From contig JALHOO010000001.1 of NCBI GenBank assembly GCA_022842945.1, forward strand, positions 24,847-88,846: a stretch of 64,000 nt of DNA, given 5' to 3'. This document shows positions 26,222 through 52,585 of this stretch, in pieces. This stretch comes from Minisyncoccota bacterium. GTDB taxonomy: Bacteria > Patescibacteriota > Minisyncoccia > Phycocordibacterales > Phycocordibacteraceae. Both the position numbers and the translations under genes were made by a program. Positions within the stretch are counted from its first letter, which is position 1. Every line of letters begins with the position of its first letter. The notes below the pieces were generated by a model. It made no database searches, had not been told where the DNA came from, and saw only the letters and a program-made list of their open reading frames with translations.

Positions 26222-27109
26222 ATGGATGAGATAACTATTGAGGGGAAGGTATACATCTCGTCAAAGCAGGCGGCCAAAATTACTGGATATGCAAAGGATT
26301 ACGTTGGCCAGCTTTGTCGAGAAGGACGTGTTGACGCTCGTCACATAGGGCGTAATTGGTACGTTCTTGAAGATTCGATCCGTGAACATCGCTTTGGAGT
26401 ACCAGAAGAGAAGCCTGTGGAGGCTCCTAGGCAGGTAGAGAGTGCAATGAATACCGTATCTACCTGGCAGAAGCCACAGTATGCGCCTGAAGCACCTGTG
26501 TCTGTGCCAAGTCTGACTCCAAAGGCCCCTGAGGCGCCTGTGAGCACGCCTGCAATAGCAGATATGCAGTCTGCATGGAAGGAGTGGTTCGAAGAAAAGA
26601 AGCCTGTTATGGCGCTTCCAGACGGCTCAGAGGACTTTAAGGAAGAGTATTTGCCTCTCATTGTGCCTGAACCTGCTCTCGAGGAGGTTAAGGCAGAGGC
26701 TCCAGTGGAGGAACCAGAGGAAATGGTTGTTATTTCTCGCATACGCCCTGTGCCTGAAGAGGTTGCAGACGTGATTCCAGAGGAGGAAAAGGTTGAGCTA
26801 CACCGATCGTATACAACTACTACTTCTCCTCGTATGGAATACGACGATGGAATTGTAGAGGTGCCGCAGCCTGCTCACGTCACAGCGCCCGTTATAAAGG
26901 CTCCGTACCAGCCTGTTGAGGAGAAAGCATCAGCAAGTGGAGTCGTGCGCGCCCTGCTTATGGTGCTAGCTGTTGCGTCAGCAATGGTAGCGCTTATAGG
27001 AACAGGGAACGCAGATCAGCTTCTATCGGGTACTAGCCTAGACTTCGGTGCCCAGAAGGAGGTAATCGATTTTCTCGGTGGAAAGAGTACCTACGAAAGT
27101 AGCTTATAG
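26222..27109 (+). CDS. Hypothetical membrane-anchored protein with an N-terminal excisionase-like HTH (HTH_17-type) module, a Pro/Glu-rich linker and one TM helix near the C-terminus
   Basis: The N-terminus YISSKQAAKITGYAKDYVGQLCREGRVDARHIGRNWYV fits the HTH_17 pattern (..EAA..LG.S..T.YRL.R.G.LPA.KIGR.WRI). A TM helix VVRALLMVLAVASAMVALIG follows. The N-terminal module is paralogous to the N-terminus of the downstream giant gene. Confidence 0.5.
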   Translation: MDEITIEGKVYISSKQAAKITGYAKDYVGQLCREGRVDARHIGRNWYVLEDSIREHRFGVPEEKPVEAPRQVESAMNTVSTWQKPQYAPEAPVSVPSLTPKAPEAPVSTPAIADMQSAWKEWFEEKKPVMALPDGSEDFKEEYLPLIVPEPALEEVKAEAPVEEPEEMVVISRIRPVPEEVADVIPEEEKVELHRSYTTTTSPRMEYDDGIVEVPQPAHVTAPVIKAPYQPVEEKASASGVVRALLMVLAVASAMVALIGTGNADQLLSGTSLDFGAQKEVIDFLGGKSTYESSL

Positions 27110-40384: not shown

Positions 40385-41392
40385 ATGGCCATTCGGGTAG
40401 CAATCAACGGGTTCGGAAGGATAGGAAGAGCATTTGTGCGTCAGACCTGGGACAACCCGGAGATTGAGCTCGTGGCAGTGAATGATCTTGGTTCTGCAGA
40501 GAATCTTGCATACCTTCTTCAGTTCGACACGGTATACGGACGCGCACCGTTTCCGGTTGCGTGGAAGGAGGGCGCACTCAACGTGAACGGAAAGGAGGTA
40601 CGGTTCCTCTCAGAGAGAGACCCAAGCTTGCTTCCATGGAAAGAGATTGGCGTGGATGTGGTTATTGAGGCAACGGGCTTCTTCACCAACTATGAGAAAG
40701 CGAATGCGCACATAGTGGCAGGTGCACGTCGTGTGGTTATAACAGGTCCCGTGAAAGAGGAGCATCCTCTGGGCGCCACTATCCTTATGGGACTCGACGA
40801 GTCGAAGATGGCAACGTGCCCAATTACGAGCAATGCGTCATGCACCACGAACTCCGCGTCTCCGGTTATTGCTATCCTTGACGAGACTATTGGTATTGAG
40901 AAGGCTATTCTCTCAACAACCCACGCGTACACTGGTACCCAGTCTATTGTGGACGGTCCGTCCAAAGACATGAAGGAGGGGAGGGCAGCTGCACAGAACA
41001 TCATTCCAACCTCAACAGGTTCTGCTATTGCCGTAACAAAAGCGTACCCTCTACTGACAGGAAAGTTCGACGGTATCTCTTTGCGTGTGCCCGTTCCTGC
41101 GGGCTCTATTGCGGATATTACGTTCATCGCAAAGCGTCCCACAACCGCTGAAGAGGTTAACGAGATCCTTCGAAAGGCTGCGAAAGAAGAGCGCTGGCAG
41201 GGCTTGTTCCAGGCTTCGGACGAGGAGTATGTATCAAGTGACATTGTGGGGCAGCGCTTTGCGTCTATTGCAGACCTTGGCATGACGCGCGTAGTTGATG
41301 GCACTCTTGTGAAAGTACTCGCCTGGTACGACAACGAGGCTGGGTATACCGCAACCCTTGTGCGTCACGCACTAAAGGCAGGATCCTTCTAG
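40385..41392 (+). CDS. gap: Type I glyceraldehyde-3-phosphate dehydrogenase
   Basis: Motifs IRVAINGFGRIGR and SNASCTTN (catalytic Cys). Confidence 0.9.
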   Translation: MAIRVAINGFGRIGRAFVRQTWDNPEIELVAVNDLGSAENLAYLLQFDTVYGRAPFPVAWKEGALNVNGKEVRFLSERDPSLLPWKEIGVDVVIEATGFFTNYEKANAHIVAGARRVVITGPVKEEHPLGATILMGLDESKMATCPITSNASCTTNSASPVIAILDETIGIEKAILSTTHAYTGTQSIVDGPSKDMKEGRAAAQNIIPTSTGSAIAVTKAYPLLTGKFDGISLRVPVPAGSIADITFIAKRPTTAEEVNEILRKAAKEERWQGLFQASDEEYVSSDIVGQRFASIADLGMTRVVDGTLVKVLAWYDNEAGYTATLVRHALKAGSF

Positions 41393-41397
41393 TGTCT

Positions 41398-41886
41398 ATG
41401 AAGATCTTCATCGCAACTGATCACGCAGGGTTCCTTCTGAAGGAAGTGCTTGTAGCGTACATACGCGATGCACTTTCGTATGAGGTTGAGGACCTTGGTG
41501 CGTACACCCTTGAGCCCTCTGACGACTACCCGGACCTCATTAGGCCGTGCGCACTTAAGGTAGCGAACACACCCGGATCGCTCGGTATCGTTCTTGGAGC
41601 TTCAGGACAGGGTGAGGCAATAGCTGCCAATCGTGTGCCCCATGTGCGCGCCGCACTCTACTACGGACAGGCACACGCGGTAGGTGCCATTGACGCAGCC
41701 GGAGCCCCATCGCTTGATGGATACGACATCATACGACTTGCACGGGAGCACAACGACGCGAACATACTCGCGCTTGGGGCACGGTTCCTCACCGAAGAAG
41801 ATGCAAAAGAGGCTACACGCATATTCATTGAAGCTACCTTTACTGGGGACGAGCGACATGTGCGTCGGATTGCAAAACTGGCGTAG
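41398..41886 (+). CDS. rpiB: Ribose-5-phosphate isomerase B (RpiB/LacAB family)
   Basis: Motifs MKIFIATDHAGFLLKE and GIVLGASGQGEAIAANRVPHVRAAL. The track starts at GTG 41392; ATG 41398 is preferred. Confidence 0.8.
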   Translation: MKIFIATDHAGFLLKEVLVAYIRDALSYEVEDLGAYTLEPSDDYPDLIRPCALKVANTPGSLGIVLGASGQGEAIAANRVPHVRAALYYGQAHAVGAIDAAGAPSLDGYDIIRLAREHNDANILALGARFLTEEDAKEATRIFIEATFTGDERHVRRIAKLA

Positions 41887-41909
41887 AGAAGGGGCTATAC
41901 TAGGAGGTA

Positions 41910-42632
41910 ATGGGAATCATCGTTCCGGCCATCATCCCAACCTCCCGTGAAGACCTTGAGAGAAAAGTCTCTCAGCTCCGGGGACTCTGCGAAGAGGTGC
42001 AGGTTGATATTGTAGACGGGAAGTATGCGAGGCCTGCGAGTTGGCCATACGCTACAGAAGCGGCAGAGCCGTCACGCATGCTCGCAGAAGGCGAGATGCT
42101 GCCGTATGCAGGCGAGATTGGGTTTGAGATAGATCTCATGAGTGCAGACCCGGAATCAGTTGCGGGTGTGTGGATTGAGCTTGGTGCAAAGCGTCTCACC
42201 ATTCATGCAGAGAGCACCCGGTATCTATCACGGTTCCTTGAAAGTGCCCGCACTATGTTTGGGCATGACGCAGGCTTCGCCTCGAACCTCCTGTCTCTCG
42301 GGCTTGCTATAGGTACGGAGACTGACCTCTCACTCATCGATCCTTTTATAGAGAAGATAGACTACGTACAGTTCATGGGAGTCCGCACCATAGGGCACCA
42401 AGGAGAACCCTTCTCTCCAGGAGTACTGTCCCGGATAGCGGTGTTTAGGAAGAAGTATCCGAACACACCCGTGCAGGTTGATGGCGGGGTTACGCTCGGG
42501 AATGCCCCCGCTCTTTTAGAGGCAGGGGTCTCGCGACTTGTTGTAGGGTCTGCTTTATGGAAAGCTCCTGATCTGGGTGCCCAGTACCGTGCGTTCGATG
42601 CGCTAACTGAGCAGTACGGTATCTACGGATAA
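41910..42632 (+). CDS. Ribulose-phosphate 3-epimerase-like (ribulose-phosphate binding barrel), divergent
   Basis: VQVDIVDGKYA (compare HVDVMDGHFV) and C-terminal VQVDGGVTLGNAPALLEAGVSRLVVGSALW (compare IEVDGGV...AGAD..VAGSAIF). A strong AGGAGG Shine-Dalgarno sits at 41903. Confidence 0.55.
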   Translation: MGIIVPAIIPTSREDLERKVSQLRGLCEEVQVDIVDGKYARPASWPYATEAAEPSRMLAEGEMLPYAGEIGFEIDLMSADPESVAGVWIELGAKRLTIHAESTRYLSRFLESARTMFGHDAGFASNLLSLGLAIGTETDLSLIDPFIEKIDYVQFMGVRTIGHQGEPFSPGVLSRIAVFRKKYPNTPVQVDGGVTLGNAPALLEAGVSRLVVGSALWKAPDLGAQYRAFDALTEQYGIYG

Positions 42633-42686
42633 GTAATACGATATACTGTCTACAATGATTCGCGCATGGTGTGGGATAGAGAAGCT

Positions 42687-43220
42687 ATGAACCGTGGATT
42701 CACGCTCATCGAGCTCCTGGTCGTAATAGCCATAATCGGCGTACTGTCGTCAGTGGTTCTGGCCTCTTTGAATACCGCACGTATGAAGGCACGTGATACA
42801 TCTCGCATCTCCCAGCTCGCACAGATACGTACAGCGCTCGAACTGTATTACTTGGATAATGGTTCCTATCCTCCTTCTGAATGCGGCCATGACTGCAACG
42901 GATACCGCTACAGCTACAACGCGACATCATGGAATACTCTTGCCGGGCAGCTTGCGCCGTATATGGGGCAACTACCTGTTGATCCTATAAACACGGGATG
43001 TGCTCCGTGGGGAGCAAACTGCTTCTCCTATGCGTACGGGAATGTTGGCAACAGTTCAGTTACTCCCCAGTATGACCTCACGGCACAGCTTGAGGACCCC
43101 GGCAGTGCCTATCGTTGCGGTGTACGGAACTACAGGTTTTATTTCAATGCGAGCCAGGCTTGGTGCACTGCGTTTGGGGGCTCGTACTCAAACCAAATAT
43201 ACGAAGCATCGCCTCTCTAA
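42687..43220 (+). CDS. Type IV pilin / pseudopilin (prepilin-type N-terminal cleavage/methylation domain)
   Basis: MNRG^FTLIELLVVIAIIGVLSSVVLASL is a class III signal peptide with the G-1/F+1/E+5 motif. The C-terminal domain is Cys-containing. Start chosen at ATG 42687 rather than 42666. Confidence 0.8.
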   Translation: MNRGFTLIELLVVIAIIGVLSSVVLASLNTARMKARDTSRISQLAQIRTALELYYLDNGSYPPSECGHDCNGYRYSYNATSWNTLAGQLAPYMGQLPVDPINTGCAPWGANCFSYAYGNVGNSSVTPQYDLTAQLEDPGSAYRCGVRNYRFYFNASQAWCTAFGGSYSNQIYEASPL

Positions 43221-43229
43221 CATATCCGT

Positions 43230-43475
43230 ATGACAAACGTTTCATTTAATGAAGAGCCTGTTTCGAACGCGTCGTATACAAGCATAAAGGAGTCTGTGTT
43301 TATACGCTCGGTGCTTGCAACGGGTATCGTGCGTACTCCGAAGCAGGCAGAGTATGTTCTGGTGGGGGTTGTGGTGCTTGCGATTATTCTGACCTTCGTG
43401 CTGTGGCCAAAGGGAAGACCAGCGCCAGATCTTAATGTGAATCCCGTGGCAGGACCTTCCGGAGCGGTGCGGTAG
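43230..43475 (+). CDS. Small single-TM membrane protein, FNEEP family member A
   Basis: MTNVSFNEEP N-terminus with one TM helix (YVLVGVVVLAIILTFVLW). It lies 9 bp after the pilin stop and is paralogous to 49447-49698 and 50183-50434. Confidence 0.5.
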   Translation: MTNVSFNEEPVSNASYTSIKESVFIRSVLATGIVRTPKQAEYVLVGVVVLAIILTFVLWPKGRPAPDLNVNPVAGPSGAVR

Positions 43476-43495
43476 CACATGCTATCTTTAGAGTA

Positions 43496-44353
43496 ATGGC
43501 TCTTACAGACACCGAGATACAGGCAATTGCCGCTACAGCAGAAGAGATACGCGAGACCATTCTCGACATGCTTGTGCAGGCTGGGAGCGGACACACTGCA
43601 GGTCCTCTCGGCATGAGCGACCTCATGGCCGCCCTCTATTTTCATGTTCTGAAGCACGACCCCAAGAATCCTTCCTGGGAGGAGCGGGACCGGTTCCTTC
43701 TTTCAAATGGACACACTGTGCCGGTGCAGTATGCCGCTATGGCGCATGCAGGGTATTTCCCCATTGAAGAGTGCCTAACACTCCGCACCTTCGGGTCCCG
43801 TCTTCAGGGACACCCCGAACGAGACCGTCTTCCGGGTCTTGAGACAACCTCAGGTCCTTTAGGATCAGGTTTGTCGCAGGCTGCCGGTATGGCGCTCGCG
43901 CTTCGTATGGACGGAAAGAAGAATCGTACGTTCGTTATGATGAGTGACGGAGAACAACAGGAAGGGAATATCTGGGAGGCCGTTATGTTTGCGGCAAAGT
44001 ATGAGCTGGGGAACCTTACGGCTCTCATGGACCGCAACTTCATTCAGATAGATGGCATGACCGAAGACGTGATGCCTCTTGATTCGCTCAAGGACAAGTA
44101 CGAGGCATTTGGCTGGCACGTTATAGAAGTGGATGGGCACAACATCGAAGCCATTATTGATGCCTGCGACCATGCACGTGCTATTGCGGAGAAGCCCACA
44201 CTTATCATTGCGCACACTATTCCGGGAAAGGGAGTGCCTGAGATTGAGTACGATTATCGTTGGCACGGAAAGCCGCCAACCAAAGAAGAGGCGGTACGGT
44301 TTATGAAGGAACTCAGAAATGGCGCAGGAAGAGTGCCAAATGAATACGCATAG
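43496..44353 (+). CDS. Transketolase, N-terminal (TPP-binding) subunit of a split transketolase
   Basis: Motifs GSGHTAGPLGMSDLMAALYF, RDRFLLSNGHTVPVQYA and the GDG-type TPP motif (MSDGEQQEGNIWEA). Confidence 0.85.
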   Translation: MALTDTEIQAIAATAEEIRETILDMLVQAGSGHTAGPLGMSDLMAALYFHVLKHDPKNPSWEERDRFLLSNGHTVPVQYAAMAHAGYFPIEECLTLRTFGSRLQGHPERDRLPGLETTSGPLGSGLSQAAGMALALRMDGKKNRTFVMMSDGEQQEGNIWEAVMFAAKYELGNLTALMDRNFIQIDGMTEDVMPLDSLKDKYEAFGWHVIEVDGHNIEAIIDACDHARAIAEKPTLIIAHTIPGKGVPEIEYDYRWHGKPPTKEEAVRFMKELRNGAGRVPNEYA

Positions 44354-44424
44354 AGACGGAAGCTGAATTCCTCTCATTACACTCGAGTTCATAGTCTACG
44401 TAAGACTTAAAAGCCCTCTGTGCA

Positions 44425-44464
44425 CAAAATGTTAATTACCTAGAACCCAAAATGTTAATTACCT
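44425..44464 (+). promoter_or_regulatory. Two 17-bp direct repeats upstream of the Fic gene (candidate regulator binding sites)
   Basis: CAAAATGTTAATTACCT occurs at 44425-44441 and 44448-44464, in the AT-rich leader. Confidence 0.35.
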
Positions 44465-44525
44465 GAAATTAGAATATCCACAGTACCCTTTATTTACAGG
44501 TTTATATTTGATACAATGTTAAATA

Positions 44526-45725
44526 ATGGATTCAGAAACGGCAAATAAGCAAGCATTTAAGCCAATTGAACTCAGGCTTTACGAGCCTGATTGGGGCTCA
44601 GAACTGGCCACTATAATCCTTGAATTAGAGCAGTTGCGAGTTAAGCGGCTGGGTGGGCCCGTTCCTCCGTATATCTTTTTCCAGCTTAAGAATATTTTTC
44701 AGATGCTTGAGAGTCTCGGCTCAGCACGTATCGAGGGGAATAGAACTACGCTCTCGGAACTTGTTGAGAAAGCAATTGAAGAAAAAGGTGAACCGAAGGA
44801 TGGAGATTCTCAAATGAGAGAAATCGGGAATATTGAGGAGGCCATTACCTCCATAGAGAAGAATGTAGAACAGGGAACGCAGATAAATCGTGCTCTTATT
44901 TCTGAACTACATCGAATAGTTGTATCCAATCTTCCGTTACCTCCTAGCGGGGAAGGTTCTCAAAGTCCAGGAGAGTACCGGTCGATTCCGGTGACGATTC
45001 AAAAGTCAGAACATACACCCCCTGAACCAACCCAGGTTAATGACTATATGGAGGAACTGTACTCTTTTGTTAACACTCCCGTGGAGTCAAAGAATGATCT
45101 CTTGCTTACTGCTCTTGCTCACCATCGTGCCGCTTGGGTTCATCCATTCGATAATGGTAATGGGCGTGTTATCCGCATGTTTACCTACGCTCTTCTTATT
45201 AAGCAAGGCTTTGCGGTAGCTACCGGTCGAATCCTCAATCCTACAGCCATTTTCTGTAATGATCGTCAGCGATATTACGACATGCTTGCAAAGGCAGATA
45301 GTGGGGAGCGTGAAGGAGTACTTGAATGGTGTGAGTACGTGCTTAGCGGACTTCGAGATGAAATCAAGAAAATCGACCGATTGCTTGACCACAGTTATAT
45401 GATGGAGGAGATTCTTATCCCTGCCTTGAATTTTTCTTTGGACAGAAAGTTGATTACTGATCGTGAATACTCAATTCTTCTCGAGGTCATCACTAGCAAA
45501 GACATGGCTATCAAGTCTCAGGATTTGAAAGACACCATAGGTGACGTCTCTACCACGCACCGGTCTCGAATAATTCGTGACCTGAGGAATAAGGGTATGC
45601 TTATGCCGCTTAAAGAAAAGGGTCGGGTTTATACCATTGGTTTTATGAATAACTACTTGCTCCGAGGCGTTATGAAAGTGCTTGAGCAGGAAGGATTCGT
45701 TCCTCACTCACTCACTCAAAAGTAA
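44526..45725 (+). CDS. Fic/Doc family protein (probable AMPylator-type)
   Basis: Canonical Fic motif HPFDNGNGRVIR (HxFx[DE]GNGRxxR). The gene is AT-rich relative to its neighbours. Confidence 0.85.
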   Translation: MDSETANKQAFKPIELRLYEPDWGSELATIILELEQLRVKRLGGPVPPYIFFQLKNIFQMLESLGSARIEGNRTTLSELVEKAIEEKGEPKDGDSQMREIGNIEEAITSIEKNVEQGTQINRALISELHRIVVSNLPLPPSGEGSQSPGEYRSIPVTIQKSEHTPPEPTQVNDYMEELYSFVNTPVESKNDLLLTALAHHRAAWVHPFDNGNGRVIRMFTYALLIKQGFAVATGRILNPTAIFCNDRQRYYDMLAKADSGEREGVLEWCEYVLSGLRDEIKKIDRLLDHSYMMEEILIPALNFSLDRKLITDREYSILLEVITSKDMAIKSQDLKDTIGDVSTTHRSRIIRDLRNKGMLMPLKEKGRVYTIGFMNNYLLRGVMKVLEQEGFVPHSLTQK

Positions 45726-45820
45726 TCTCATACACACTTCGGATGCCCTATTCACGTTCTGTAGTTCGTGGACTGTTGGGTGCCAGTGGATGCATAGCGT
45801 ATACGATATACTTAGAATAT

Positions 45821-46099
45821 ATGAAACTGGTACGTAACGCAGATCTCCAGAAGAAGCTCCTCAGGAAGCCAGGCTTTAAGGAATCGTACGAAGGACTTGA
45901 GCTTGAATTCGCTCTTATCGATGCTCTTATACATGCGCGTACCGTGCAGGGAGTTACACAGGCACAGCTTGCCAAGAAGATAGGCACAAAACAGTCTGCG
46001 ATTGCACGCTTTGAGGCCGGAAATTCCAATCCCACGCTCGCGTTCATTCAGCGTCTTTCAGACGCTCTAAATATCCGGGTACAGGTGAGTGTGCGGTAG
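45821..46099 (+). CDS. XRE-family helix-turn-helix transcriptional regulator
   Basis: HTH_3 (XRE) pattern QGVTQAQLAKKIGTKQSAIARFEAGNSNPTLAFIQRLSDAL. ATG 45821 chosen; the track ORF starts at 45743. Confidence 0.7.
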   Translation: MKLVRNADLQKKLLRKPGFKESYEGLELEFALIDALIHARTVQGVTQAQLAKKIGTKQSAIARFEAGNSNPTLAFIQRLSDALNIRVQVSVR

Positions 46100-46108
46100 T
46101 ATCTATGT

Positions 46109-47098
46109 ATGCTTAACAAGAACGCACATCTGCACGACGCAGTCTTTTCCAAAGACATTGCTGAGAAGCCAACACGCGACGGGTTTGGACTTGGTACGGT
46201 TGAAGCCGGGAAGAAGAATCCAAACGTTGTTGTACTGTGTGCCGATCTCAAAGAGTCTACGCGTGCGGAATGGTTCGAGAATGAGTTCCCGGACCGCTTC
46301 ATTGAAGTAGGTGTCGCAGAACAGAATATGGCAACCGTTGCGAGCGGTATGGCAGCGGTTGGGAAGCGTCCGTTCATTGCGTCGTATGCTGCCTTTTCTC
46401 CAGGACGTAACTATGAGCAAATTCGCACAACTATCGCACTCAACCAACAGCCGGTTGTTGTGTGCGGTATGCATGCAGGAGTGTCGGTAGGGCCGGACGG
46501 CGCTACGCACCAGATGCTCGAAGACATTGGCATGATGCGCATGCTTCCCAACATGAACGTTATCGTTCCGGGGGATGCTGAAGAAGCAAAGAAGGCTGTT
46601 ATGGCGGCCGCTGAATGCGAGGGACCTAGCTACATACGCTTTGGACGCACTGCAACTCCCGTGTTTACGACGCCTGATACGCCCTTTGCCATAGGGAAGG
46701 CGCTAGAGCTCTGGAGCTCAGAGAAGCCAAAGGTTGCTGTTATGTCTACCGGAGCGCTCTCGTATGAGGCGTTGCTTGCAGCGCGTGCGCTTGCGACAGA
46801 AGGGGTTGAGGTTTCAGTACTACACGTCCCGTCTGTTAAGCCACTCGACGAACAGGCAGTGCTCGCAGCTGCTAAGAAAGCAGGTCGGGTTATAACCATC
46901 GAAGAGCACCAGGCAGCGGGAGGTTTTGGAAGCGCTATTGCCGAGTTTCTTTCGGGAGCGTATCCCGTACCTATTACTCGCCTTGGGGTGCAGGACCAGT
47001 TTGGACAGTCCGGAACACCGTCTGAGCTACTTATACACTACGGCCTTTCAAGTGCCGCAATACGCAGTGCCGTACATGCTATCGTAAAGGGTACATAA
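46109..47098 (+). CDS. Transketolase, C-terminal (Pyr + C-terminal domain) subunit
   Basis: Motifs FIEVGVAEQNMATVASGMA, GPDGATHQMLEDIGMMRMLPNMNVIVPGD and the C-terminal domain. Confidence 0.85.
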   Translation: MLNKNAHLHDAVFSKDIAEKPTRDGFGLGTVEAGKKNPNVVVLCADLKESTRAEWFENEFPDRFIEVGVAEQNMATVASGMAAVGKRPFIASYAAFSPGRNYEQIRTTIALNQQPVVVCGMHAGVSVGPDGATHQMLEDIGMMRMLPNMNVIVPGDAEEAKKAVMAAAECEGPSYIRFGRTATPVFTTPDTPFAIGKALELWSSEKPKVAVMSTGALSYEALLAARALATEGVEVSVLHVPSVKPLDEQAVLAAAKKAGRVITIEEHQAAGGFGSAIAEFLSGAYPVPITRLGVQDQFGQSGTPSELLIHYGLSSAAIRSAVHAIVKGT

Positions 47099-47103
47099 TA
47101 CTT

Positions 47104-47274
47104 ATGCGCGGAAAGAAGCTTTCAACCTACGTAGCAGTGCTTGCAATTACAGTATTTGGCGGCATGGCCACTCTGCTCATTGTTAATGCGGCACACTCTG
47201 TTGAAGACGAGGGGGTGTACGCAGGCATGGATCCCTTTGCTCCAGAGCACGAGCCTGACGCTATTCACGAATAG
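47104..47274 (+). CDS. Possible small membrane protein (56 aa)
   Basis: An ATG-to-TAG ORF with one TM helix (VAVLAITVFGGMATLLIV), lying between tkt-C and the terminator. It is below the track's size cut-off. Confidence 0.25.
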   Translation: MRGKKLSTYVAVLAITVFGGMATLLIVNAAHSVEDEGVYAGMDPFAPEHEPDAIHE

Positions 47275-47278
47275 TGCA

Positions 47279-47312
47279 CAAAAAACACTCCCGCAATGCG
47301 GGAGTGTTTTTG
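47279..47312. terminator. Bidirectional intrinsic terminator
   Basis: Hairpin AAAAACACTCCCGC-AAT-GCGGGAGTGTTTTT. Confidence 0.65.
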
Positions 47313-47313
47313 T

Positions 47314-48309
47314 TTACGCAATGTCTGTGATCTTGTATTCCGGGGGTGCGTAAGCGAGATACTGTTCGAGCTTTTCGCGCGTAAGAAGTCCTGCCTGAGC
47401 ACCTACTTCCTGCACTACGGACATGGAGTTAATAGGTCCCCACAGAAGAGCCTCTTCAAGGGTCTTTCCAAGAGAGAGTGCCGCGGCAACCGTTGAGGCG
47501 AAGGAATCTCCAGCACCCGTGCGCTCAAATGGTGCACGCGCGTCTGGGTACATGGGTACGTGCATCTTTCGGATACCGTCGTATGCGTACGCACCCTCAC
47601 GTCCGTCGGTTATAACCACCGTCTCAGGTCCAAGCGCCCGCATGTCCTCAAGAAGAGAACCCATGTCAGTACTCTTGGTGCCAAGAATACGCATAGCCTC
47701 CTCTTTGTTGCAGAAGAAGAGTGCGCTTCTCGTGTAGAGTGCAGAAAGTTTCTCCTTGCCCAGCTTCATCTGGAAGGTCCCCGGCTGGAAGGCGAGCTTT
47801 GTGGTTGGGTGCTTCTCGAGGAAGCTAACCAGTGCCTCGTGATAGGGAAGCGAGTTCTCTGAAAGAGATGAGAGGTACACCCACGCAGGACTCTCCGATA
47901 GCTCAGGAACGGTATAGGTGTAGTCCTCATGCTTTACGAGAATAGTACGCTCGCTTCCGTACCAGAGTACGTAATGGTAGTTAGTGTTCTTACCCGGCTC
48001 TGTAACCATAAGAGAGGTGTCCACGCCTTCCTCGACAAGCTTCGCAATGCATTCAGGTCCGTACCGGTCGTCTCCTACATAGGCACGAAGAGAACTAGAG
48101 AGACCAAGTCTACTTGCGGACACGGCCGCGTTTGACGCGTTGCCCACAGCTACCGCTAACACGGCGTATTCATAGGGTATTTTGTCCCCAAAGCGCATGC
48201 ACAGCTGCTTGCCCTCAGCGTCTTTCATCTCTTCTACGTGTGCGTCCGTAAGGCGAATAAAGGGTTCTGTAACAATGTCGCCGATGGCGAGGAAATCAAT
48301 AGGCTTCAT
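47314..48309 (-). CDS. PfkB-family carbohydrate kinase (ribokinase/fructokinase-like)
   Basis: C-terminal GAGDSFASTVAAAL and N-terminal FLAIGDIVTEPFI. The start is uncertain: the track ORF extends to 48348. Confidence 0.65.
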   Translation of the reverse strand: MKPIDFLAIGDIVTEPFIRLTDAHVEEMKDAEGKQLCMRFGDKIPYEYAVLAVAVGNASNAAVSASRLGLSSSLRAYVGDDRYGPECIAKLVEEGVDTSLMVTEPGKNTNYHYVLWYGSERTILVKHEDYTYTVPELSESPAWVYLSSLSENSLPYHEALVSFLEKHPTTKLAFQPGTFQMKLGKEKLSALYTRSALFFCNKEEAMRILGTKSTDMGSLLEDMRALGPETVVITDGREGAYAYDGIRKMHVPMYPDARAPFERTGAGDSFASTVAAALSLGKTLEEALLWGPINSMSVVQEVGAQAGLLTREKLEQYLAYAPPEYKITDIA

Positions 48310-48391
48310 AGGGCGAGTATACCGCATTTGGTGTTTGCGTAATCCCAATACACGAAGAGAAAGACTTCACCGTATCCGCTATACTAAAGGT

Positions 48392-49417
48392 ATGACTGAT
48401 CTCTCATCACTTGCGCGTTCCTTAGTAGTTCCGGGTAAGGGCATCCTCGCTGCAGACGAAAGCGAGGGCACTGCAGACGAGAAGCGTCTTGCGGCATTCG
48501 GTATTGAAACAGGTCCAGAGATGCGTCGGAAGTTCCGCGATCTCTTGCTTGCGACACCAGGCATCGAGGAATATTTGAGCGGCGTGATTTTGTACAAGGA
48601 GACGCTTTCTCAGAAAGATACGTCAGACGGTATTCCTTCCAAAGAGGTAGACGGTCTTCCGTTCTCCGAGCTTCTCGCGCGCCGCGGCATTATTCCTGGC
48701 ATCAAGGTGGATGAAGGTCTTGAGCCAATTGCTGAAGGCTCTAAGGAAACCATAACCAAGGGACTTCTCGGACTTCCTGAGAGACTTGCCGAGTATCATG
48801 CAGAGCACGGCACCCAGTTCACAAAGTGGCGGGCGGCGCTACGTATTGAAGGAGACACCCTTCCAAGTGCTGCAGCACTCGTAGAGAATGCAAAGCGCCT
48901 TGCCTCATATGCCTGCGAGGTGCAGCGGGCCGGTATGGTGCCTATCCTTGAGCCAGAGGTTCTCTTGGATGGGGCACACGGGCGTTTGCGCTCACGTGCG
49001 GTGCTTGAACAGACCATGCGTGTTCTCTTTGAGACACTGAACGAACAGTGTGCTGACATCTCCGGCATCATCATAAAGACCTCCATGGTGCTTTCTGGAA
49101 GCGAGACTGGGAAGAAGGACACCCCCGAAGAAGTGGCAGAGGATACGGTGGGGGCGCTTATGGAAAGCGTGCCACGAGAGGTTGCAGGAATTGTATTCCT
49201 TTCAGGAGGCCAGACTCCGGACCAGGCAACGGAGAACCTTGCGGCTATAACCGTAGCCGCACGCGCAAAGAACGCACCGTGGCCTCTAACCTTTAGCTAC
49301 GGACGCGCTCTTCAGGAAGAGGCGCTCAGCGTATGGAAGGGAAAGGATGAGAACGTAACAGAGGCACGTGCAGTCTTCCTTGCGCGCCTTGCGAAAGTTG
49401 CAGGGGCCATTACGTAG
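48392..49417 (+). CDS. Fructose-bisphosphate aldolase, class I
   Basis: GKGILAADESEGTADEKRLAAFGIE... with the Schiff-base Lys region (GIIIKTSMV). ATG 48392 chosen; the long upstream extension in the track is non-coding-like. Confidence 0.8.
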   Translation: MTDLSSLARSLVVPGKGILAADESEGTADEKRLAAFGIETGPEMRRKFRDLLLATPGIEEYLSGVILYKETLSQKDTSDGIPSKEVDGLPFSELLARRGIIPGIKVDEGLEPIAEGSKETITKGLLGLPERLAEYHAEHGTQFTKWRAALRIEGDTLPSAAALVENAKRLASYACEVQRAGMVPILEPEVLLDGAHGRLRSRAVLEQTMRVLFETLNEQCADISGIIIKTSMVLSGSETGKKDTPEEVAEDTVGALMESVPREVAGIVFLSGGQTPDQATENLAAITVAARAKNAPWPLTFSYGRALQEEALSVWKGKDENVTEARAVFLARLAKVAGAIT

Positions 49418-49446
49418 CATTAATACCAAGAGCTAAGAGTATCTAT

Positions 49447-49698
49447 ATGAACGTACAGTTTAACGAGCCTGAGTATGCAGCAGCGCCAGCCGCTCTAGCC
49501 TCTAATAAGAGGGGACCCCTTATGGGCTTTATCATTGGGCAGAAATGGGCGAAAGATGAAGCGGGAGCGCAGCGCATCCTTCTGTACATTCTCATTGTTG
49601 TTGTGGCTGTTACCGGTATGATCCTTGTATCAGGATTAAACTTCTCAAGTCCTCCTCCACCCATTATTCCTGCAACACCAGGAGCTGGTGCGCCCTAG
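49447..49698 (+). CDS. Small single-TM membrane protein, FNEEP family member C
   Basis: MNVQFNEPEY N-terminus, KWAKDEAGAQ, and a TM helix ILLYILIVVVAVTGMILV. Paralogous to members A and B. Confidence 0.5.
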   Translation: MNVQFNEPEYAAAPAALASNKRGPLMGFIIGQKWAKDEAGAQRILLYILIVVVAVTGMILVSGLNFSSPPPPIIPATPGAGAP

Positions 49699-49719
49699 TG
49701 CATCAAGAGATACTGAAAT

Positions 49720-50181
49720 CTAATAGGGATTACAGATGCAGTAGTAGGTATTCGACGATGTGTCGCACCAATTCTGCCCCGGTGCCCACGGACGACACGA
49801 ACCTGCATATCCGGTTGAGGCAGCGGTGCCGGAAAATTGACTTACGACAAGACCTCCAATGGCTCCTCCATAGTCGTAGTAGTAGTACGGATACGAGGGA
49901 TTAGGAGAGGTGGGGAGCGAAGCAATAAATCCTTCAGTAACTAGTGGTGTAAGTACGTTTGGAAGGAGCGATCCACAGCATGATTGGGGGTTTGCTGGAT
50001 AGGCACCGTACTTGCCGAAGTACAGCTGCAGCGCTGTAGACACTTGTCTGAGATCGGTACGAATTTTCGCATCATTTGCCTTTGCGCGGGCAGTGCCAAG
50101 AGAAGCGAGTACCACACTTGAAAGCACGCCAATGATGGCGATTACCACGAGAAGTTCAATAAGGGTGAAGCCGCGTTTCAT
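49720..50181 (-). CDS. Type IV pilin / pseudopilin, second paralog
   Basis: MKRG^FTLIELLVVIAIIGVLSSVVLASL. Residues 5-31 are identical to the first pilin, while the C-terminal domain diverges and contains a YPYYYYDYGG segment. Start at ATG 50181; the track ORF extends to 50304. Confidence 0.8.
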   Translation of the reverse strand: MKRGFTLIELLVVIAIIGVLSSVVLASLGTARAKANDAKIRTDLRQVSTALQLYFGKYGAYPANPQSCCGSLLPNVLTPLVTEGFIASLPTSPNPSYPYYYYDYGGAIGGLVVSQFSGTAASTGYAGSCRPWAPGQNWCDTSSNTYYCICNPY

Positions 50182-50182
50182 A

Positions 50183-50434
50183 TTATCGGGGGACCGTCTG
50201 TTGAGACTGTGCTCGTTCAGTGTATTCGTTTGGAGACACGGTAGTGGTGCTGTTTCCGTTGAGTAACGCAATACCGGCAAGGACGAGGCATCCAGCTGCC
50301 ACAACTAGTAATACAATAAGAGCTTGTTTTTCATCCTTGGCGAATCCCCAGCGCATCACAAGCGCATAGAGGCCTGTGGGTGCGGAGCTCACCGTCCGTG
50401 CCATCTGCGGCTCTTCATTAAAGGTAACGCTCAT
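50183..50434 (-). CDS. Small single-TM membrane protein, FNEEP family member B
   Basis: MSVTFNEEPQ N-terminus, WGFAKDEKQA, and a TM helix LIVLLVVAAGCLVLAGIAL. Its stop abuts the pilin-2 start, so the two are probably co-transcribed. Confidence 0.5.
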   Translation of the reverse strand: MSVTFNEEPQMARTVSSAPTGLYALVMRWGFAKDEKQALIVLLVVAAGCLVLAGIALLNGNSTTTVSPNEYTERAQSQQTVPR

Positions 50435-50543
50435 ACCTAGTACTATAGCTAATTGTAGAGCATTGTAGATAGAGTCCGGGGACAGTGGTCACCAGGGCTA
50501 CGCACTTGTGCCTAACAGCCTTTTCAGGCATACTCCATGCACT

Positions 50544-51179
50544 ATGCAGCACAGCCTAACCGTTTCCCCCCGCACTATTGTGGGCAAGAGTTCTGAGAGC
50601 CTTAACAAAGAGGGCGCATTGCCTGCGGTCGTATACGGCCCAAAGCAGGAGGCAATCTCTCTAACCGTACCCCTCGCTGAGTTTGAGGCGCTCCTTCGCC
50701 GTGGTGGTGAGTCTGCGCTTATTACCCTCACAGGACTCGAGAAGCCTCTCCAGGTGCTTATCCATGATCTTGATCGCGACCCGGTTACCCACGTACCCCG
50801 TCACGCTGATTTCTATGCGGTAGAGAAGGGAGCAAAGGTTACGGTATCGGTACCGCTCGCATTCGTTGGTGACTCTCTTGCCATGAAGGCAGGCGCAAAC
50901 CTCGTTAAGGTGCTTCATGAAGTTGAGATCGAGTCTGACCCTTCAAAGCTCCCCTCTGAGATCGAGGTGGACATCTCCGCGCTCGCTGAGATGGGCGACC
51001 AGATCCACGTATCCAGCCTCAAGGCCCCTGCAGGTGTCGAGATTCTCACTCCTGGAGACGAAGTAGTAGCGCTCGCGCAGGCTGTAGAAGAAGAGCCTGA
51101 GGAGACTGCAACGCTTGATATGGATGCTATTCAGGTTGAGAAGAAGGGCAAGGCAGAGACAGAAGAGGAAGCAGCGTAA
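50544..51179 (+). CDS. rplY: Ribosomal protein L25 / general stress protein Ctc form
   Basis: TVSPRTIVGKSSESLNKEGALPAVVYG... plus the C-terminal Ctc extension. The track starts at GTG 50508. Confidence 0.8.
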   Translation: MQHSLTVSPRTIVGKSSESLNKEGALPAVVYGPKQEAISLTVPLAEFEALLRRGGESALITLTGLEKPLQVLIHDLDRDPVTHVPRHADFYAVEKGAKVTVSVPLAFVGDSLAMKAGANLVKVLHEVEIESDPSKLPSEIEVDISALAEMGDQIHVSSLKAPAGVEILTPGDEVVALAQAVEEEPEETATLDMDAIQVEKKGKAETEEEAA

Positions 51180-51253
51180 CGCACTCGAATTGAACAAACG
51201 CCTGCACGTACGTGCAGGCGTTTGTCGTACGTCATCTGGTATACTAGTCCTCT

Positions 51254-52585
51254 ATGAAGCGCTCGTTCATTGTTGCTGCTCTCTTTCTTTCCGTTCTCGT
51301 CCTTCCTGGCGTTCTTGTTGCGCAGGAGCTTTCTGGCGAGGAGCGTGCGGCGCTTGAGCGACAGCTCGCGAATCTCGAGCGCGAGATGCAGCGCACACAA
51401 GCAACCATTGATTCTCTTTCAGCTGAAGGCGCGTCCCTTCAGCGCGACATTGCTATTCTTGATGGCGAGATTAAGAAAGCAAAGCTCCAGGTGCGCACTA
51501 CCGAAACAGAGATCCAGGCGCTTTCTGCCGGCATAACCATACACAGCAGAACTATCGGTACGCTCTCAGAGAAGATGATACGTGAGCAGGAGTCTCTTGC
51601 GCAGATTCTGCGCCGTACTGACGCTATAGATGACACGTCTCTAGTTGAAGCGGTCCTTTCAAACGGCGACCTCTCTGACGTATTTGGAGACCTTGATGCG
51701 TTTGCATCCGTGAAGCAGGCGATGCGTGTTTCCTTTGAAGAACTGCGTGATACCCGCATTGAGACTGAGAGGGAGAAGATGGGTCTTGAAGACCAGCGTA
51801 CAGACCAGCAGATATTGCGTTCTGCACTCATCCTGGACCAACAGAAGGTGCAGGCAAAGGAAGCAGAAAAGAGAAAACTCCTTAACGAGACCAAGGGACA
51901 GGAGAGCCAGTACCGCCAACTCAAGAGCTCCCAGGAACAGACGGCGGCACAGATTCGCGCAAAGCTATTCCCGCTTCGCGACACGAGCGGTATTCAGTTC
52001 GGAGACGCCGTGAAGTATGCACAATCTGCCTCGAGAGTAACTGGCGTACGTCCCGCACTTATTCTTGCGATCCTTTCGCAGGAATCAGACCTTGGAAAGA
52101 ATGTGGGCCAGTGTCTCATAACGGACCTCACTACCGGAGACGGAAAGGGAAAGAACACGGGTACCCCGTTCCCGGGCACCATGAAAGTCCCGCGCGACAC
52201 CGTGCCGTTTGAGCGTCTTATGAAGGCAGCAGGACGTGATTGGCGCGCAACACCAATCTCCTGTCCTCTCCCTGGAGGGTATGGAGGTGCTATGGGACCA
52301 ACGCAGTTCATCCCAAGTACCTGGGAGATGTACGAGGCACGTATTAAGTCTGCGCTTGGTGTGGGGGCAGCTGATCCATGGAATGCGCTTCATGCCATAA
52401 CCGCAACCGGTCTCTATCTGTCAGACGGGGGAGCTGCAGGAGGATCCTATATTGCTGAGCACACCTCAGCAGCCAAATACTACGCAGGAGGGAACTGGGC
52501 GACGTCTGGCCAGGGATACGCCAACAGTGTTATGTCGAAGGCAGCAGCGTTCCAGAAAGACATTGATTTCTTGAACGCAAACTAG
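51254..52585 (+). CDS. Secreted coiled-coil protein with a C-terminal lytic-transglycosylase (SLT-like) domain
   Basis: Signal peptide MKRSFIVAALFLSVLVLPGVLVAQ, about 250 aa of coiled coil, then AILSQESDLG...GAMGPTQFIPSTWEMY resembling the SLT catalytic motifs. Confidence 0.5.
   Translation: MKRSFIVAALFLSVLVLPGVLVAQELSGEERAALERQLANLEREMQRTQATIDSLSAEGASLQRDIAILDGEIKKAKLQVRTTETEIQALSAGITIHSRTIGTLSEKMIREQESLAQILRRTDAIDDTSLVEAVLSNGDLSDVFGDLDAFASVKQAMRVSFEELRDTRIETEREKMGLEDQRTDQQILRSALILDQQKVQAKEAEKRKLLNETKGQESQYRQLKSSQEQTAAQIRAKLFPLRDTSGIQFGDAVKYAQSASRVTGVRPALILAILSQESDLGKNVGQCLITDLTTGDGKGKNTGTPFPGTMKVPRDTVPFERLMKAAGRDWRATPISCPLPGGYGGAMGPTQFIPSTWEMYEARIKSALGVGAADPWNALHAITATGLYLSDGGAAGGSYIAEHTSAAKYYAGGNWATSGQGYANSVMSKAAAFQKDIDFLNAN

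Follow-up and report, generated by a model that had tools for sequence, protein, structure and literature searches.

The window, by which we mean the whole 64-kb stretch of DNA that we analyzed, contains three small ORFs, here called A, B, and C, and two prepilin genes that lie next to them. Their positions are as follows.

42687..43220, plus strand: prepilin 1, 177 aa, MNRG followed by FTLIELLVVIAIIG...; N_methyl E = 3.1e-8, T2SSG E = 2.6e-5, TIGR02532 E = 2e-9
43230..43475, plus strand: small protein A, 81 aa, following pilin 1 after 9 nt; family HMM E = 7.9e-30
49447..49698, plus strand: small protein B, 83 aa, orphan copy, convergent with pilin 2; family HMM E = 2.2e-26
49720..50181, minus strand: prepilin 2, 153 aa, MKRG followed by FTLIELLVVIAIIG..., second cistron of the C-pilin 2 cassette; N_methyl E = 2.3e-8, TIGR02532 E = 9.8e-10
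50183..50434, minus strand: small protein C, 83 aa, first cistron in the cassette that it forms with pilin 2; family HMM E = 4.7e-30
50442..50469, minus strand: promoter-like site from a consensus scan (TCTACA, 16 nt, TATAGT), within the 73 nt that separate an L25 gene from C

The prepilins and small genes of the window

The initial annotation had called the two larger genes type IV pilin paralogs, and both are genuine prepilins, matching Pfam N_methyl above its curated cut-off as well as TIGR02532 (IV_pilin_GFxxxE). As type IV prepilins (PF07963/TIGR02532) we accepted proteins with a short basic leader ending in Gly, F or M at +1, Glu at +5, about 20 hydrophobic residues directly after these leader features, and a match to the N_methyl HMM. 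The leaders MNRG (pilin 1) and MKRG (pilin 2) are each followed by FTLIELLVV, and the two proteins are 37% identical to one another (E = 2e-20). An alternative pilin 1 start at 42666 would give an 11-residue leader, and upstream of that ATG, with 9 nt in between, lies a TACAAT box (42651-42656). No pilus machinery genes, including pilM and pilO, were found among the window genes scanned.

The coordinates and lengths originally proposed for the small ORFs (81, 83, and 83 aa) are correct, as is the arrangement described for them: A starts at 43230, 9 nt past the pilin 1 stop at 43220; C, whose stop is at 50183, abuts pilin 2 on the minus strand with 1 nt before the pilin start at 50181; and B, which ends at 49698, converges on pilin 2, which ends at 49720 after 21 intervening nucleotides. 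Small gene A has a -10-like TAACAT at 43218-43223, separated from its ATG by 6 nt. The putative -10 box of the promoter-like site ends 7 nt before the ATG of C and therefore suggests a leaderless or nearly leaderless transcript, in a consensus scan in which the number of promoter-like sites across the region as a whole was not above chance. Prepilin 2 has no -10-like box of its own.

All three small proteins share the M-x-V-x-F-N-E-E-P start and the single TM helix that had been attributed to them, and each has one strongly hydrophobic 19-residue window, with a mean Kyte-Doolittle hydropathy of 2.6-3.0. The (K/R)WAKDE-like segment, also ascribed to all three, is present in B (QKWAKDE) and C (RWGFAKDE) and missing from A (TGIVRTPKQ), which keeps the glycine (T-G-I) without the AKDE after it. 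In the subtype to which A belongs, IVRT.KQAEYVL precedes the helix and WPKGRP follows it; C represents an RWGFAKDEK subtype. In pairwise BLASTP, the copies show low but genuine similarity (30-35% identity, E = 7e-4 and 9e-5). A six-frame scan of the 64 kb for ORFs with F-[ND]-E shortly behind the start codon and a continuation of >40 aa recovered A, B, C, and one unrelated match, and the family HMM described below scored no ORF in the window besides these three.

A family of small membrane proteins in Patescibacteria

An HMM search of the kind that the initial annotation had asked for revealed a large family whose members mostly adjoin prepilins, with 2,565 cluster representatives at 50% identity (E <= 1e-3); the window ORFs have 26 homologues in the 90%-identity database. 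So far, the family has been seen only in Patescibacteria (CPR) sequences. Neither Pfam (25 members scanned) nor NCBIfam (6 members scanned) has a model for it, and we found no PDB or fold relative of the small proteins. Judging from these sequences, we conclude that this is a large, undescribed family of ~80-aa bitopic membrane proteins. We provisionally define it by a length of 50-100 aa, the start M-x(1,2)-[VI]-x-F-[ND]-E-E, the residues G32, A40, and L44, and one N-in TM helix; A, B, and C carry the motif and the helix, and they score between E = 2e-26 and 5e-30 against the family HMM. The three ORFs are conserved in relatives and under purifying selection, with dN/dS of 0.03-0.20 versus their orthologues (0.20 for A, whose orthologues are P0002/3/12/13/14/27, and 0.03-0.13 for C), and we regard all three as real genes.

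Conservation is concentrated at a few positions, which in 169 sequences are F6 (98%), E8 (92%), E9 (90%), G32 (89%), A40 (97%), and L44 (96%). At the start of a typical member is a peptide, M-x-[DN]-[VI]-x-F-[ND]-E-E-[PQ]-x-Y, that is acidic, disordered, and predicted to be cytoplasmic, the mean net charge of the first 12 residues being -2.9. This peptide is followed by a short amphipathic helix, a conserved juxtamembrane turn (G-L-A-K-D-E-K-x-A), a single TM helix with a conserved alanine-rich face, and a variable, proline-rich outer tail (18% proline, median 22 aa). K+R are in excess on the N-terminal flank of the helix in 81% of members, and the predicted topology is N-in, with the conserved parts in the cytoplasm and the tail outside. 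In the AF2 model of copy C (mean pLDDT 73), residues 1-21 are unstructured, residues 22-29 and 35-59 form helices, and there is no beta structure.

Linkage to prepilin genes

The conserved pilin neighborhood that had been proposed for these small proteins extends across the family: at 45 loci, 53 of the 61 evaluable members lie within 200 nt of a prepilin, as do 47 of the 50 members of at least 70 aa, and all four further distant members, which we selected solely by the length of their contigs, adjoin a prepilin. In 43 cases the pilin comes immediately after the small gene on the same strand, and the two are typically -4 to +6 nt apart; among 32 such pairs counted earlier, the median gap was 2 nt and nine pairs overlapped by 4 nt. 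Tandem arrays contain up to four cassettes (L023, L054), and one cassette follows pilT-pilC-like genes (L026/L028), a designation judged from sequence motifs only. A TAnnnT box ends 5-10 nt before the ATG of 19/30 cassette-first small genes versus 0/30 of the pilins that follow them, and because of this difference small gene and pilin look like one operon. At a distance of 6-8 nt, the box is typical of the small genes and of about half of the control genes in these genomes.

The linkage has exceptions. In nine of the 53 cases the small gene follows the pilin, and six of the eight small genes examined in such reversed-order pairs have a -10-like box of their own, so strict co-translation is not universal. 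Several pilins in related loci (L012) have no adjacent family member. Conversely, pilin neighbors are missing for five of the 11 short members without a tail and for a few of the longer members, and the family may therefore have a broader function than the handling of pilins.

Within this framework, C-pilin 2 is an intact cassette and pilin 1-A a conserved variant in reversed order. The pilin 1 orthologue in L047 occupies the same Rpe-Tkt slot (81% identity, dN/dS 0.07), and the order of pilin (177 aa) and then small protein (81 aa) is kept there. Pilin 2 has an orthologue in L046 (88% identity, dN/dS 0.06), and in L005, L006, L007, and L046 the orthologue of copy C (63-76% identity) immediately precedes that of pilin 2. 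Cassettes move freely between genomic slots, as seen when the window is compared with L001, L047, and L054.

Copy B differs in having no pilin of its own. In the close relative L046, the orthologue of B (70% identity, dN/dS 0.17) shares 4 nt with the gene of a 156-aa prepilin; in the window, only 21 nt remain at this position after copy B. Comparison of the two loci thus identifies B as the surviving orphan, or remnant, of a separate convergent cassette whose pilin was lost, and not as a partner of pilin 2. The same orphan layout is present in other metagenomes (L052). Because B remains under purifying selection without its own pilin, it is presumably able to work in trans or on a different target.

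Possible functions and comparison with known systems

The adjacency to pilins points to an unrecognized helper of pilus subunits. Among the roles that the initial annotation had listed, chaperone or assembly factor is the best, though unproven, fit; the best specific reading, which we favor with slightly less than even confidence, is that the small proteins are stoichiometric membrane escorts of prepilins that dock onto a conserved cytoplasmic partner. The normal state of the family is a two-gene cassette that opens with the promoter-bearing small gene; the prepilin lies -4 to +6 nt behind it and probably depends on re-initiation for its translation. Because the small gene is promoter-first and the pilin tightly coupled to it, the two proteins would be produced together, in comparable amounts and at the same membrane site. 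Upon insertion of a prepilin, its nearly invariant N-terminal helix could then serve as the surface against which the small protein packs its own helix and juxtamembrane segment, the conserved segments of both proteins being predicted to lie at the cytoplasmic membrane face. With the prepilin held there by the small protein, the acidic N-terminal peptide would dock both proteins onto a conserved cytoplasmic component of the pilus machinery, for which the prepilin peptidase, the platform protein, and the PilM/ATPase layer are candidates. An immunity-like partnership with specific pilin variants, also suggested originally, receives no support, since small protein divergence does not track pilin divergence beyond close orthologues: small proteins that are ~70% identical adjoin pilins whose globular parts are only ~21-29% identical. 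Such pairing of similar small proteins with very different pilins fits action on the invariant part of the pilin. One point against the escort reading is subtype A, which is without the AKDE turn; the exceptions to the linkage and the selection on the orphan B are others.

The operon structure could also be explained if the small ORF were primarily an expression device, that is, a promoter-proximal, leaderless entry cistron whose product has little function of its own. Ribosomes would load at the 5' AUG, the TM segment would target the mRNA to the membrane co-translationally, and the promoterless pilin cistron would be translated by termination and re-initiation. The TAnnnT box 6-8 nt before the small-gene ATG, its absence from all 30 downstream pilins, and the narrow gaps are as this explanation predicts. 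We nevertheless consider it unlikely, since such a device needs neither a signature conserved at 90-98% across 169 diverged proteins nor a dN/dS of 0.03-0.20, and since the family persists as orphans (B), downstream of pilins with its own box (6/8), and away from pilins, while there are pilins without an upstream small gene.

We are similarly doubtful that these are general small membrane proteins without a pilus role, for example a housekeeping subunit or regulator of Sec/YidC, of a protease, or of envelope synthesis, whose adjacency to pilins reflects only the joint duplication of compact cassettes. The conserved cytoplasmic part is unchanged whatever the neighboring pilin, and the short members without a pilin (L035, L037, L038, L041, L045) adjoin glycosyltransferase, FtsW/RodA-like, DnaE/RNase HII-like, or L25 genes, the first two kinds having been identified by sequence only. 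However, adjacency is kept at 87-94% across very diverse cassettes and many genomic slots, which would be hard to maintain without selection because cassettes move freely between slots; and the presence of one copy for each pilin, the close coupling, and the common promoter point to the matching of pilin dosage.

The small proteins share some features with PilN, which is likewise a bitopic N-in protein with a short conserved N-terminal cytoplasmic peptide, in that case docking onto PilM. The N-terminal motif of PilN, INLLP, is hydrophobic, and the N-x-x-P spacing of F-N-E-E-P recalls it; together with the common architecture of a conserved N-terminal peptide and one helix, this raises the question of whether the small proteins are themselves PilN-like scaffold elements, minimal extra adaptors of the alignment complex that bind PilM. 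We find this improbable. The motif here is acidic and its proline is present in only 49% of members (Q in 37%), there was no Pfam PilN match at E <= 1 among the members scanned, and no family genes were found in pilMNO operons among the loci examined. Unlike PilN (PF05137), which has a large extracytoplasmic domain and is encoded once per machine in a pilMNO operon, the small proteins have only the ~22-aa proline-rich tail after the helix and occur once per pilin. In favor of this alternative, PilN, PilO, and a component with a GspL domain are all encoded in CPR genomes (PMC6744442).

Least probable, in our view, is that the small proteins are atypical prepilin-like substrates, in which prepilin peptidase would cut G32-[LF]-A-K-D-E and remove a 32-residue leader to leave a ~50-aa minor or priming pilin, or a peptidase decoy or regulator. 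The site does resemble GFxxxE (copy C reads W-G-F-A-K-D-E), with G32 in 89% of members, L, F, or I at +1 in 91%, and E or D at +5 in 71%; and 50-90-aa precursors with one helix and a glycine motif with an acidic residue five positions later are also found in Flp/Tad and short class III signal-peptide pilins, although only 1 of 22 members weakly matched Pfam Flp1_like (E = 0.013, which is chance-level) and Class_IIIsignal (E = 0.32). Flp/Fap (Tad) pilins (PF04964) match the Flp_Fap HMM and have a G/XXXXEY motif where their hydrophobic helix begins. In the small proteins, by contrast, about 10 polar or charged residues follow the glycine and the helix starts ~11 residues after it, which would place the site off the membrane face, unlike in prepilins; the supposed mature N terminus, LAKDEKGAQK, is too charged for a pilus core, the motif is absent in subtype A, and no stretch of the protein is better conserved than the "leader", whereas real leader peptides show the reverse. 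Consistent with the original statement that the small ORFs lack a prepilin motif, no N_methyl, TIGR02532, or Flp_Fap match at E <= 1 was seen for A, B, C, or the other members scanned (25 against Pfam, 6 against NCBIfam).

In size and in having one helix, the putative escorts are similar to AcrZ, KdpF, MgtS, and CydX, small single-helix accessory subunits that bind a larger membrane partner and are often encoded in its operon. None of these is known to be linked to pilins, to share the acidic N-terminal motif, or to be homologous to the small family.

Pilin accessory proteins are known from Pseudomonas aeruginosa and other Pseudomonadota, in which TfpX, TfpY, and TfpZ (FimB-like) promote pilus assembly, probably contact pilins, and are undetected in the fiber (PMC11841053). 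Like these, the small family is encoded directly beside the pilin as a cassette (53/61 within 200 nt), with similarity concentrated in the membrane-embedded or N-terminal part and a variable outer part. TfpX, TfpY, and TfpZ can cross-complement between different pilins (PMC11841053), which parallels the lack of co-diversification between small proteins and pilins. We found no sequence or fold similarity between the two groups, and their construction differs: TfpY-like proteins have 235-245 aa, three N-terminal TM helices, and a periplasmic globular beta-sheet domain, and their genes follow the pilin gene and are expressed at a low level because of an attenuating terminator in between (PMC11841053), whereas the small proteins have ~80 aa, one helix, and no globular domain, and their genes are usually upstream, promoter-bearing, and tightly coupled to the pilin. 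The small family, seen only in Patescibacteria, would thus make its cassette a new form of an already known pilin-plus-accessory arrangement.

Three small genes and their pilin neighbours

The ORFs A, B and C lie at the positions that the initial annotation gave them. Pilin 1 (42687-43220, plus strand), beside A, and pilin 2 (49720-50181, minus strand), beside C, are genuine prepilin genes, as had been proposed: both score above the curated threshold of Pfam N_methyl and both hit TIGR02532, and they are 37% identical to one another. The spacings were also right: 9 nt separate pilin 1 from A, a gap of 1 nt lies between C and pilin 2, and the converging genes B and pilin 2 end 21 nt apart.

Members of the small-protein family in the window
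43230-43475, plus strand: A, 81 aa
49447-49698, plus strand: B, 83 aa
50183-50434, minus strand: C, 83 aa

When the 64 kb were scanned in six frames for F-[ND]-E near a start codon with an ORF running more than 40 aa further, we recovered A, B, C and one unrelated match. With a family HMM, A, B and C were the sole hits in the window (E = 2e-26 to 5e-30), although their mutual identity is 24-35%. The core reading of a pilin-coupled small membrane protein family was right, and the finding is real; the WAKDE-like segment said to occur in all three copies stands for B and C and is missing from A, a minor inaccuracy. Pilin 1 may start at an ATG at 42666, with the leader MVWDREAMNRG, instead of at 42687; a TACAAT box (42651-42668 region) ends 9 nt 5' of 42666, matching the general promoter-to-start spacing.

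A word-indexed search gave 26 homologues of 58-90 aa. Against 1.84 billion cluster representatives, the complete HMM search returned 2,565 matches (E <= 1e-3), of which 415 reach E <= 1e-10; nearly all are 60-100 aa long and align from the first residue. The initial annotation had made its proposal depend on conservation in relatives, which we found: dN/dS of A, B and C against their orthologues was 0.03-0.20, with synonymous sites saturated in most pairs, compared with 0.06-0.07 for the neighbouring pilins and 0.05 for L25; the unsaturated pair from loci L005 and L006 (dS 0.31) gave 0.03. A, B and C are real genes and belong to a large family. Its named sources, a handful of MAGs, are all Patescibacteria (Paceibacterota, "Patescibacteria group" and one labelled Saccharibacteria), and a second homologue search returned only the labels "Patescibacteria group" and "Paceibacterota", with no cultivated strain. 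No Pfam or NCBIfam model matches the family, and neither Foldseek nor a profile search of the PDB yielded more than chance-level matches to transmembrane segments. We rejected a phage origin, as the viral contigs searched held no relatives. Our literature search found no description of the family, which may be among those covered by Méheust et al. and is not discussed there.

Cassette layout, putative promoters and genomic slots

We gathered loci from a genome scan, a metagenome scan, exact look-ups and four distant representatives picked solely by the length of their contigs; the genome scan used a subfamily alignment, the full family alignment having no sufficiently conserved stretch. This sample comprised 65 distinct members in 45 loci, 61 of them with enough flanking DNA to judge. 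Co-occurrence with prepilin genes, the check that the initial annotation had proposed, was borne out, with a prepilin gene at most 200 nt away from 53 of the 61 (87%); by our estimate, a gene picked at random would lie beside a pilin in about 6% of cases, given 2 pilins among the ~65 genes of the window. Adjacency held for 47 of the 50 members of at least 70 aa, and one of the three exceptions, in L007, has frame-disrupted fragments of pilins on both sides. Both of these pilin genes around a C-type small gene (L007 5632-5997 and 6278-6718) look N-terminally disrupted, their prepilin motif missing or out of frame, which could reflect an assembly error or pseudogenes. The reverse count, in which 43 of 48 pilins had a small-gene partner, is biased because the loci were gathered around family members; one locus, L012, carries three pilins with no such partner. 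Taken as a whole, we consider a functional link between the small-protein family and pilins very probable.

The usual arrangement is a cassette in which the small gene precedes the pilin on the same strand (43 of the 53 adjacent members); nine have the pilin first, and one, B in the window, is convergent. With start codons of both genes assigned by rule, the intergenic distances measured earlier in 32 small-then-pilin pairs had a median of 2 nt, 27 falling within -4 to +6 nt and nine overlapping by 4 nt. Up to four cassettes stand in tandem in L023 and L054, and one cassette (L026/L028) lies 3' of pilT- and pilC-like genes, identified from sequence only.

One rival reading is that these are general membrane proteins that travel with pilins. 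Short, tail-less members (50-65 aa), which end directly after the helix, are often found away from pilins, only 6 of 11 being pilin-adjacent, and such cases may point to a wider role or to activity in trans. Those away from pilins have as neighbours a glycosyltransferase together with a convergent FtsW/RodA-like gene, or stand upstream of L25 (neighbour identities again read from sequence).

Family members without an adjacent pilin
L035 3943-4125
L037 5004-5180
L041 4705-4881
L045 4971-5123
L038 4983-5219: 78 aa, upstream of an RNase HII-like gene

Judged by a consensus pattern, about half of long ORFs (76 of 142 controls) carry a -10-like TAnnnT box 6-9 nt 5' of the start codon, with a sharp peak at 6-8 nt, so a promoter peculiar to the small genes was rejected: the box is general in these genomes. 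Many genes of this lineage may therefore be transcribed from their own promoters as leaderless or near-leaderless mRNAs.

Examples of the TAnnnT box in the window (others occur in the loci L001-L059)
41894-41901: before Rpe
43481-43488: before TktN
51238-51245: before SLT

What is specific is the absence of the box before coupled pilins. It precedes 19 of 30 small genes that head a cassette versus none of the 30 pilins that follow them, and the pilin of a canonical cassette therefore appears to depend on the promoter of the small gene. In the eight pairs with reversed order, four pilins and six small genes have a box of their own. For C, TCTACA-16-TATAGT ends 7 nt 5' of the ATG; for A, TAACAT ends 6 nt 5' of the ATG and overlaps the stop codon of pilin 1. 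Clear Shine-Dalgarno sequences were lacking on inspection of the upstream sequences, and this, with junctions of 1-4 nt, suggests that the pilin is probably also translated through termination and re-initiation. A reading of the small gene as an expression device for the pilin would draw on this dependence, and has to be set beside the conservation of the protein itself, described below.

The backbone GAPDH-RpiB-Rpe-TktN-TktC-(small ORF)-PfkB-aldolase-L25-SLT is common to the window, L001, L047 and L054 and partly present in L012, L013, L015, L034 and L046, and the slots that cassettes occupy between its genes differ from genome to genome. The central-carbon cluster at 40385-52585 is a recurrent landing zone for cassettes, whose number, type, order and slot vary. 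In L047, pilin 1 is likewise followed by A within the Rpe-Tkt slot, the corresponding slot of L001 holds a small-then-pilin cassette of another type, and C followed by pilin 2 is kept in L005, L006, L007 and L046. The association of B with pilin 2 was a further minor inaccuracy of the initial annotation. In L046, a close relative, the B orthologue (70% identity) overlaps its own 156-aa prepilin gene by 4 nt, in a cassette convergent with that of C and pilin 2; the window has 21 nt at the position of that pilin, so B is an orphan. It is intact and conserved (dN/dS 0.17), and the same layout is found in other metagenomes (L052). The inverted orientation of B and C on either side of pilin 2 led us to consider an invertible element or shufflon. 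We rejected it: the only inverted repeats found are two of 12 nt, at chance level, the close relative has two convergent cassettes, and gene-order changes between genomes leave both genes on one strand, which inversion cannot yield.

Other features of the window were noted alongside. Between the N- and C-terminal transketolase genes is a low-GC insert (44526-46099; GC 0.45 vs about 0.53) that encodes a 399-aa Fic/DOC protein and a 118-aa HTH_3 (XRE-type) protein; the insert is missing from L001 and L047, where a MazE-Fic pair stands upstream of GAPDH instead. Directly 3' of the transketolase C-terminal gene, a 56-aa ORF (47104-47274) with one hydrophobic helix has positional counterparts of 53 aa (L001) and 64 aa (L047); it matches nothing in Pfam and is unrelated to the small-protein family. 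A 4,203-aa ORF (27702-40313, TTG start) has an HTH_17 domain at its N-terminus, long GNVGIGTT-type repeat arrays and, at its C-terminus, a Peptidase_S74 (endosialidase chaperone) domain like those found in phage tail fibres, and the ORF before it (26222-27109) also has an N-terminal HTH_17. An IS1595-family (ISXO2-like) DDE transposase gene lies at 14432-15253 (minus strand). A 724-aa protein (17286-19460) combines a Wzy_C (O-antigen ligase-like) domain with TPR repeats; Wzy_C-domain enzymes include pilin O-glycosylases, and this protein could be a candidate pilin modifier.

Protein anatomy and a possible escort role

A conservation profile from 169 family sequences showed an N-terminal motif (M1, [VI]4 at 96%, F6 at 98%, [ND]7, E8 at 92%, E9 at 90%, [PQ]10 and Y12), a variable stretch, and a second block, S22-x-L-x-x-L-V-I-[KR]-x-G32 (89%)-L-A-K-D-E-K-x-A40 (97%)-x-x-V-L44 (96%)-L, which leads into a hydrophobic helix. 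Conservation in the helix peaks every 3-4 residues (A40, L44, V47/A48, A51, A55), an alanine-rich stripe which we infer to be of the type used for close helix packing. Residues 1-12 have a mean net charge of -2.9, and the tail after the helix (median 22 residues, 18% proline) is unconserved. AlphaFold2 (135-sequence alignment, mean pLDDT 73) left residues 1-21 unstructured and the tail at low confidence, and predicted helices at 22-29 and 35-59 with a turn at the conserved G-F-A-K between them. Lysine and arginine are richer on the N-terminal flank of the helix in 81% of members, indicating an N-in, C-out topology, so the conserved parts all face the cytoplasm or inner leaflet and the outward-facing part is free to vary.

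Divergence of small protein and pilin was correlated (Mantel r = 0.34), driven by close orthologues, with r ~0.05 for pairs more than 50% diverged, and small proteins ~70% identical adjoin pilins with globular parts 21-29% identical. There is no co-diversification beyond shared ancestry, and we therefore make no claim of variant specificity. One copy per pilin, the promoter-proximal position and the tight coupling lead us to infer a stoichiometric partner and not an enzyme, while indifference to the variable pilin domain and conservation on the inner face point to the invariant N-terminal segment of the prepilin as its target. Specifically, the small protein would target the prepilin leader plus FTLIELLVVIAIIG, which would sit at the same membrane depth as its own conserved part, and its disordered, acidic, highly conserved N-terminal peptide may be a short motif that docks onto a conserved partner in the cytoplasm, for which the prepilin peptidase, the platform protein and the PilM/ATPase layer are candidates. 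We put this specific escort-and-dock mechanism forward tentatively, as a possibility somewhat short of an even chance. The wider proposal, of a near-obligatory pilus-biogenesis part in Patescibacteria that is co-produced with its prepilin from a leaderless bicistronic mRNA as a one-per-pilin escort, binds the invariant N-terminal helix, docks to the assembly machine or prepilin peptidase through the acidic peptide, and would define a mobile "escort + pilin" unit, we regard as rather unlikely in its entirety.

Type IV pili are believed to play a central part in host-cell attachment by Patescibacteria and possibly in DNA uptake (PMC6744442, PMC11623550), and more than 2,500 sequence clusters tied gene by gene to pilins are a concrete candidate for a missing pilin-handling part in this group. 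If true, the escort reading would explain how tiny cells manage many interchangeable pilin cassettes, with escort and pilin as a mobile unit shifting between intergenic slots of housekeeping operons. The cassette might also act as a marker when real CPR pilin loci are annotated, and as a unit for tracking pilin turnover between strains.

Relation to known pilus proteins

The family might be taken for prepilin-like substrates or decoys, since it contains a G-[LF]-x-x-x-[ED] look-alike; there the glycine is followed by ten polar residues, and prepilin identity was rejected because the family has no N_methyl or TIGR02532 match among the members scanned. We ranked prepilin-like processing at G32 low, along with a PilN-like role and a Flp-like identity. 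As the family has no HMM match to PilN, lacks an outer domain and occurs as one copy for each pilin, it is not PilN itself, and a PilN-like adaptor is an improbable rival reading; Flp-like identity likewise had no HMM match. A TfpY-like identity was rejected on size and architecture, since TfpY-like proteins have 235-245 aa, three helices and a domain in the periplasm (PMC11841053). The closest likeness is to the pilin-plus-accessory cassette of Pseudomonadota, which shares the pairing of an accessory gene with a pilin gene; there is no homology, however, the gene order is reversed in the small-protein family, and size, architecture and coupling differ. The cassettes described here are best filed with pilin-plus-accessory cassettes as a new variant, built on a family that is itself new and large.
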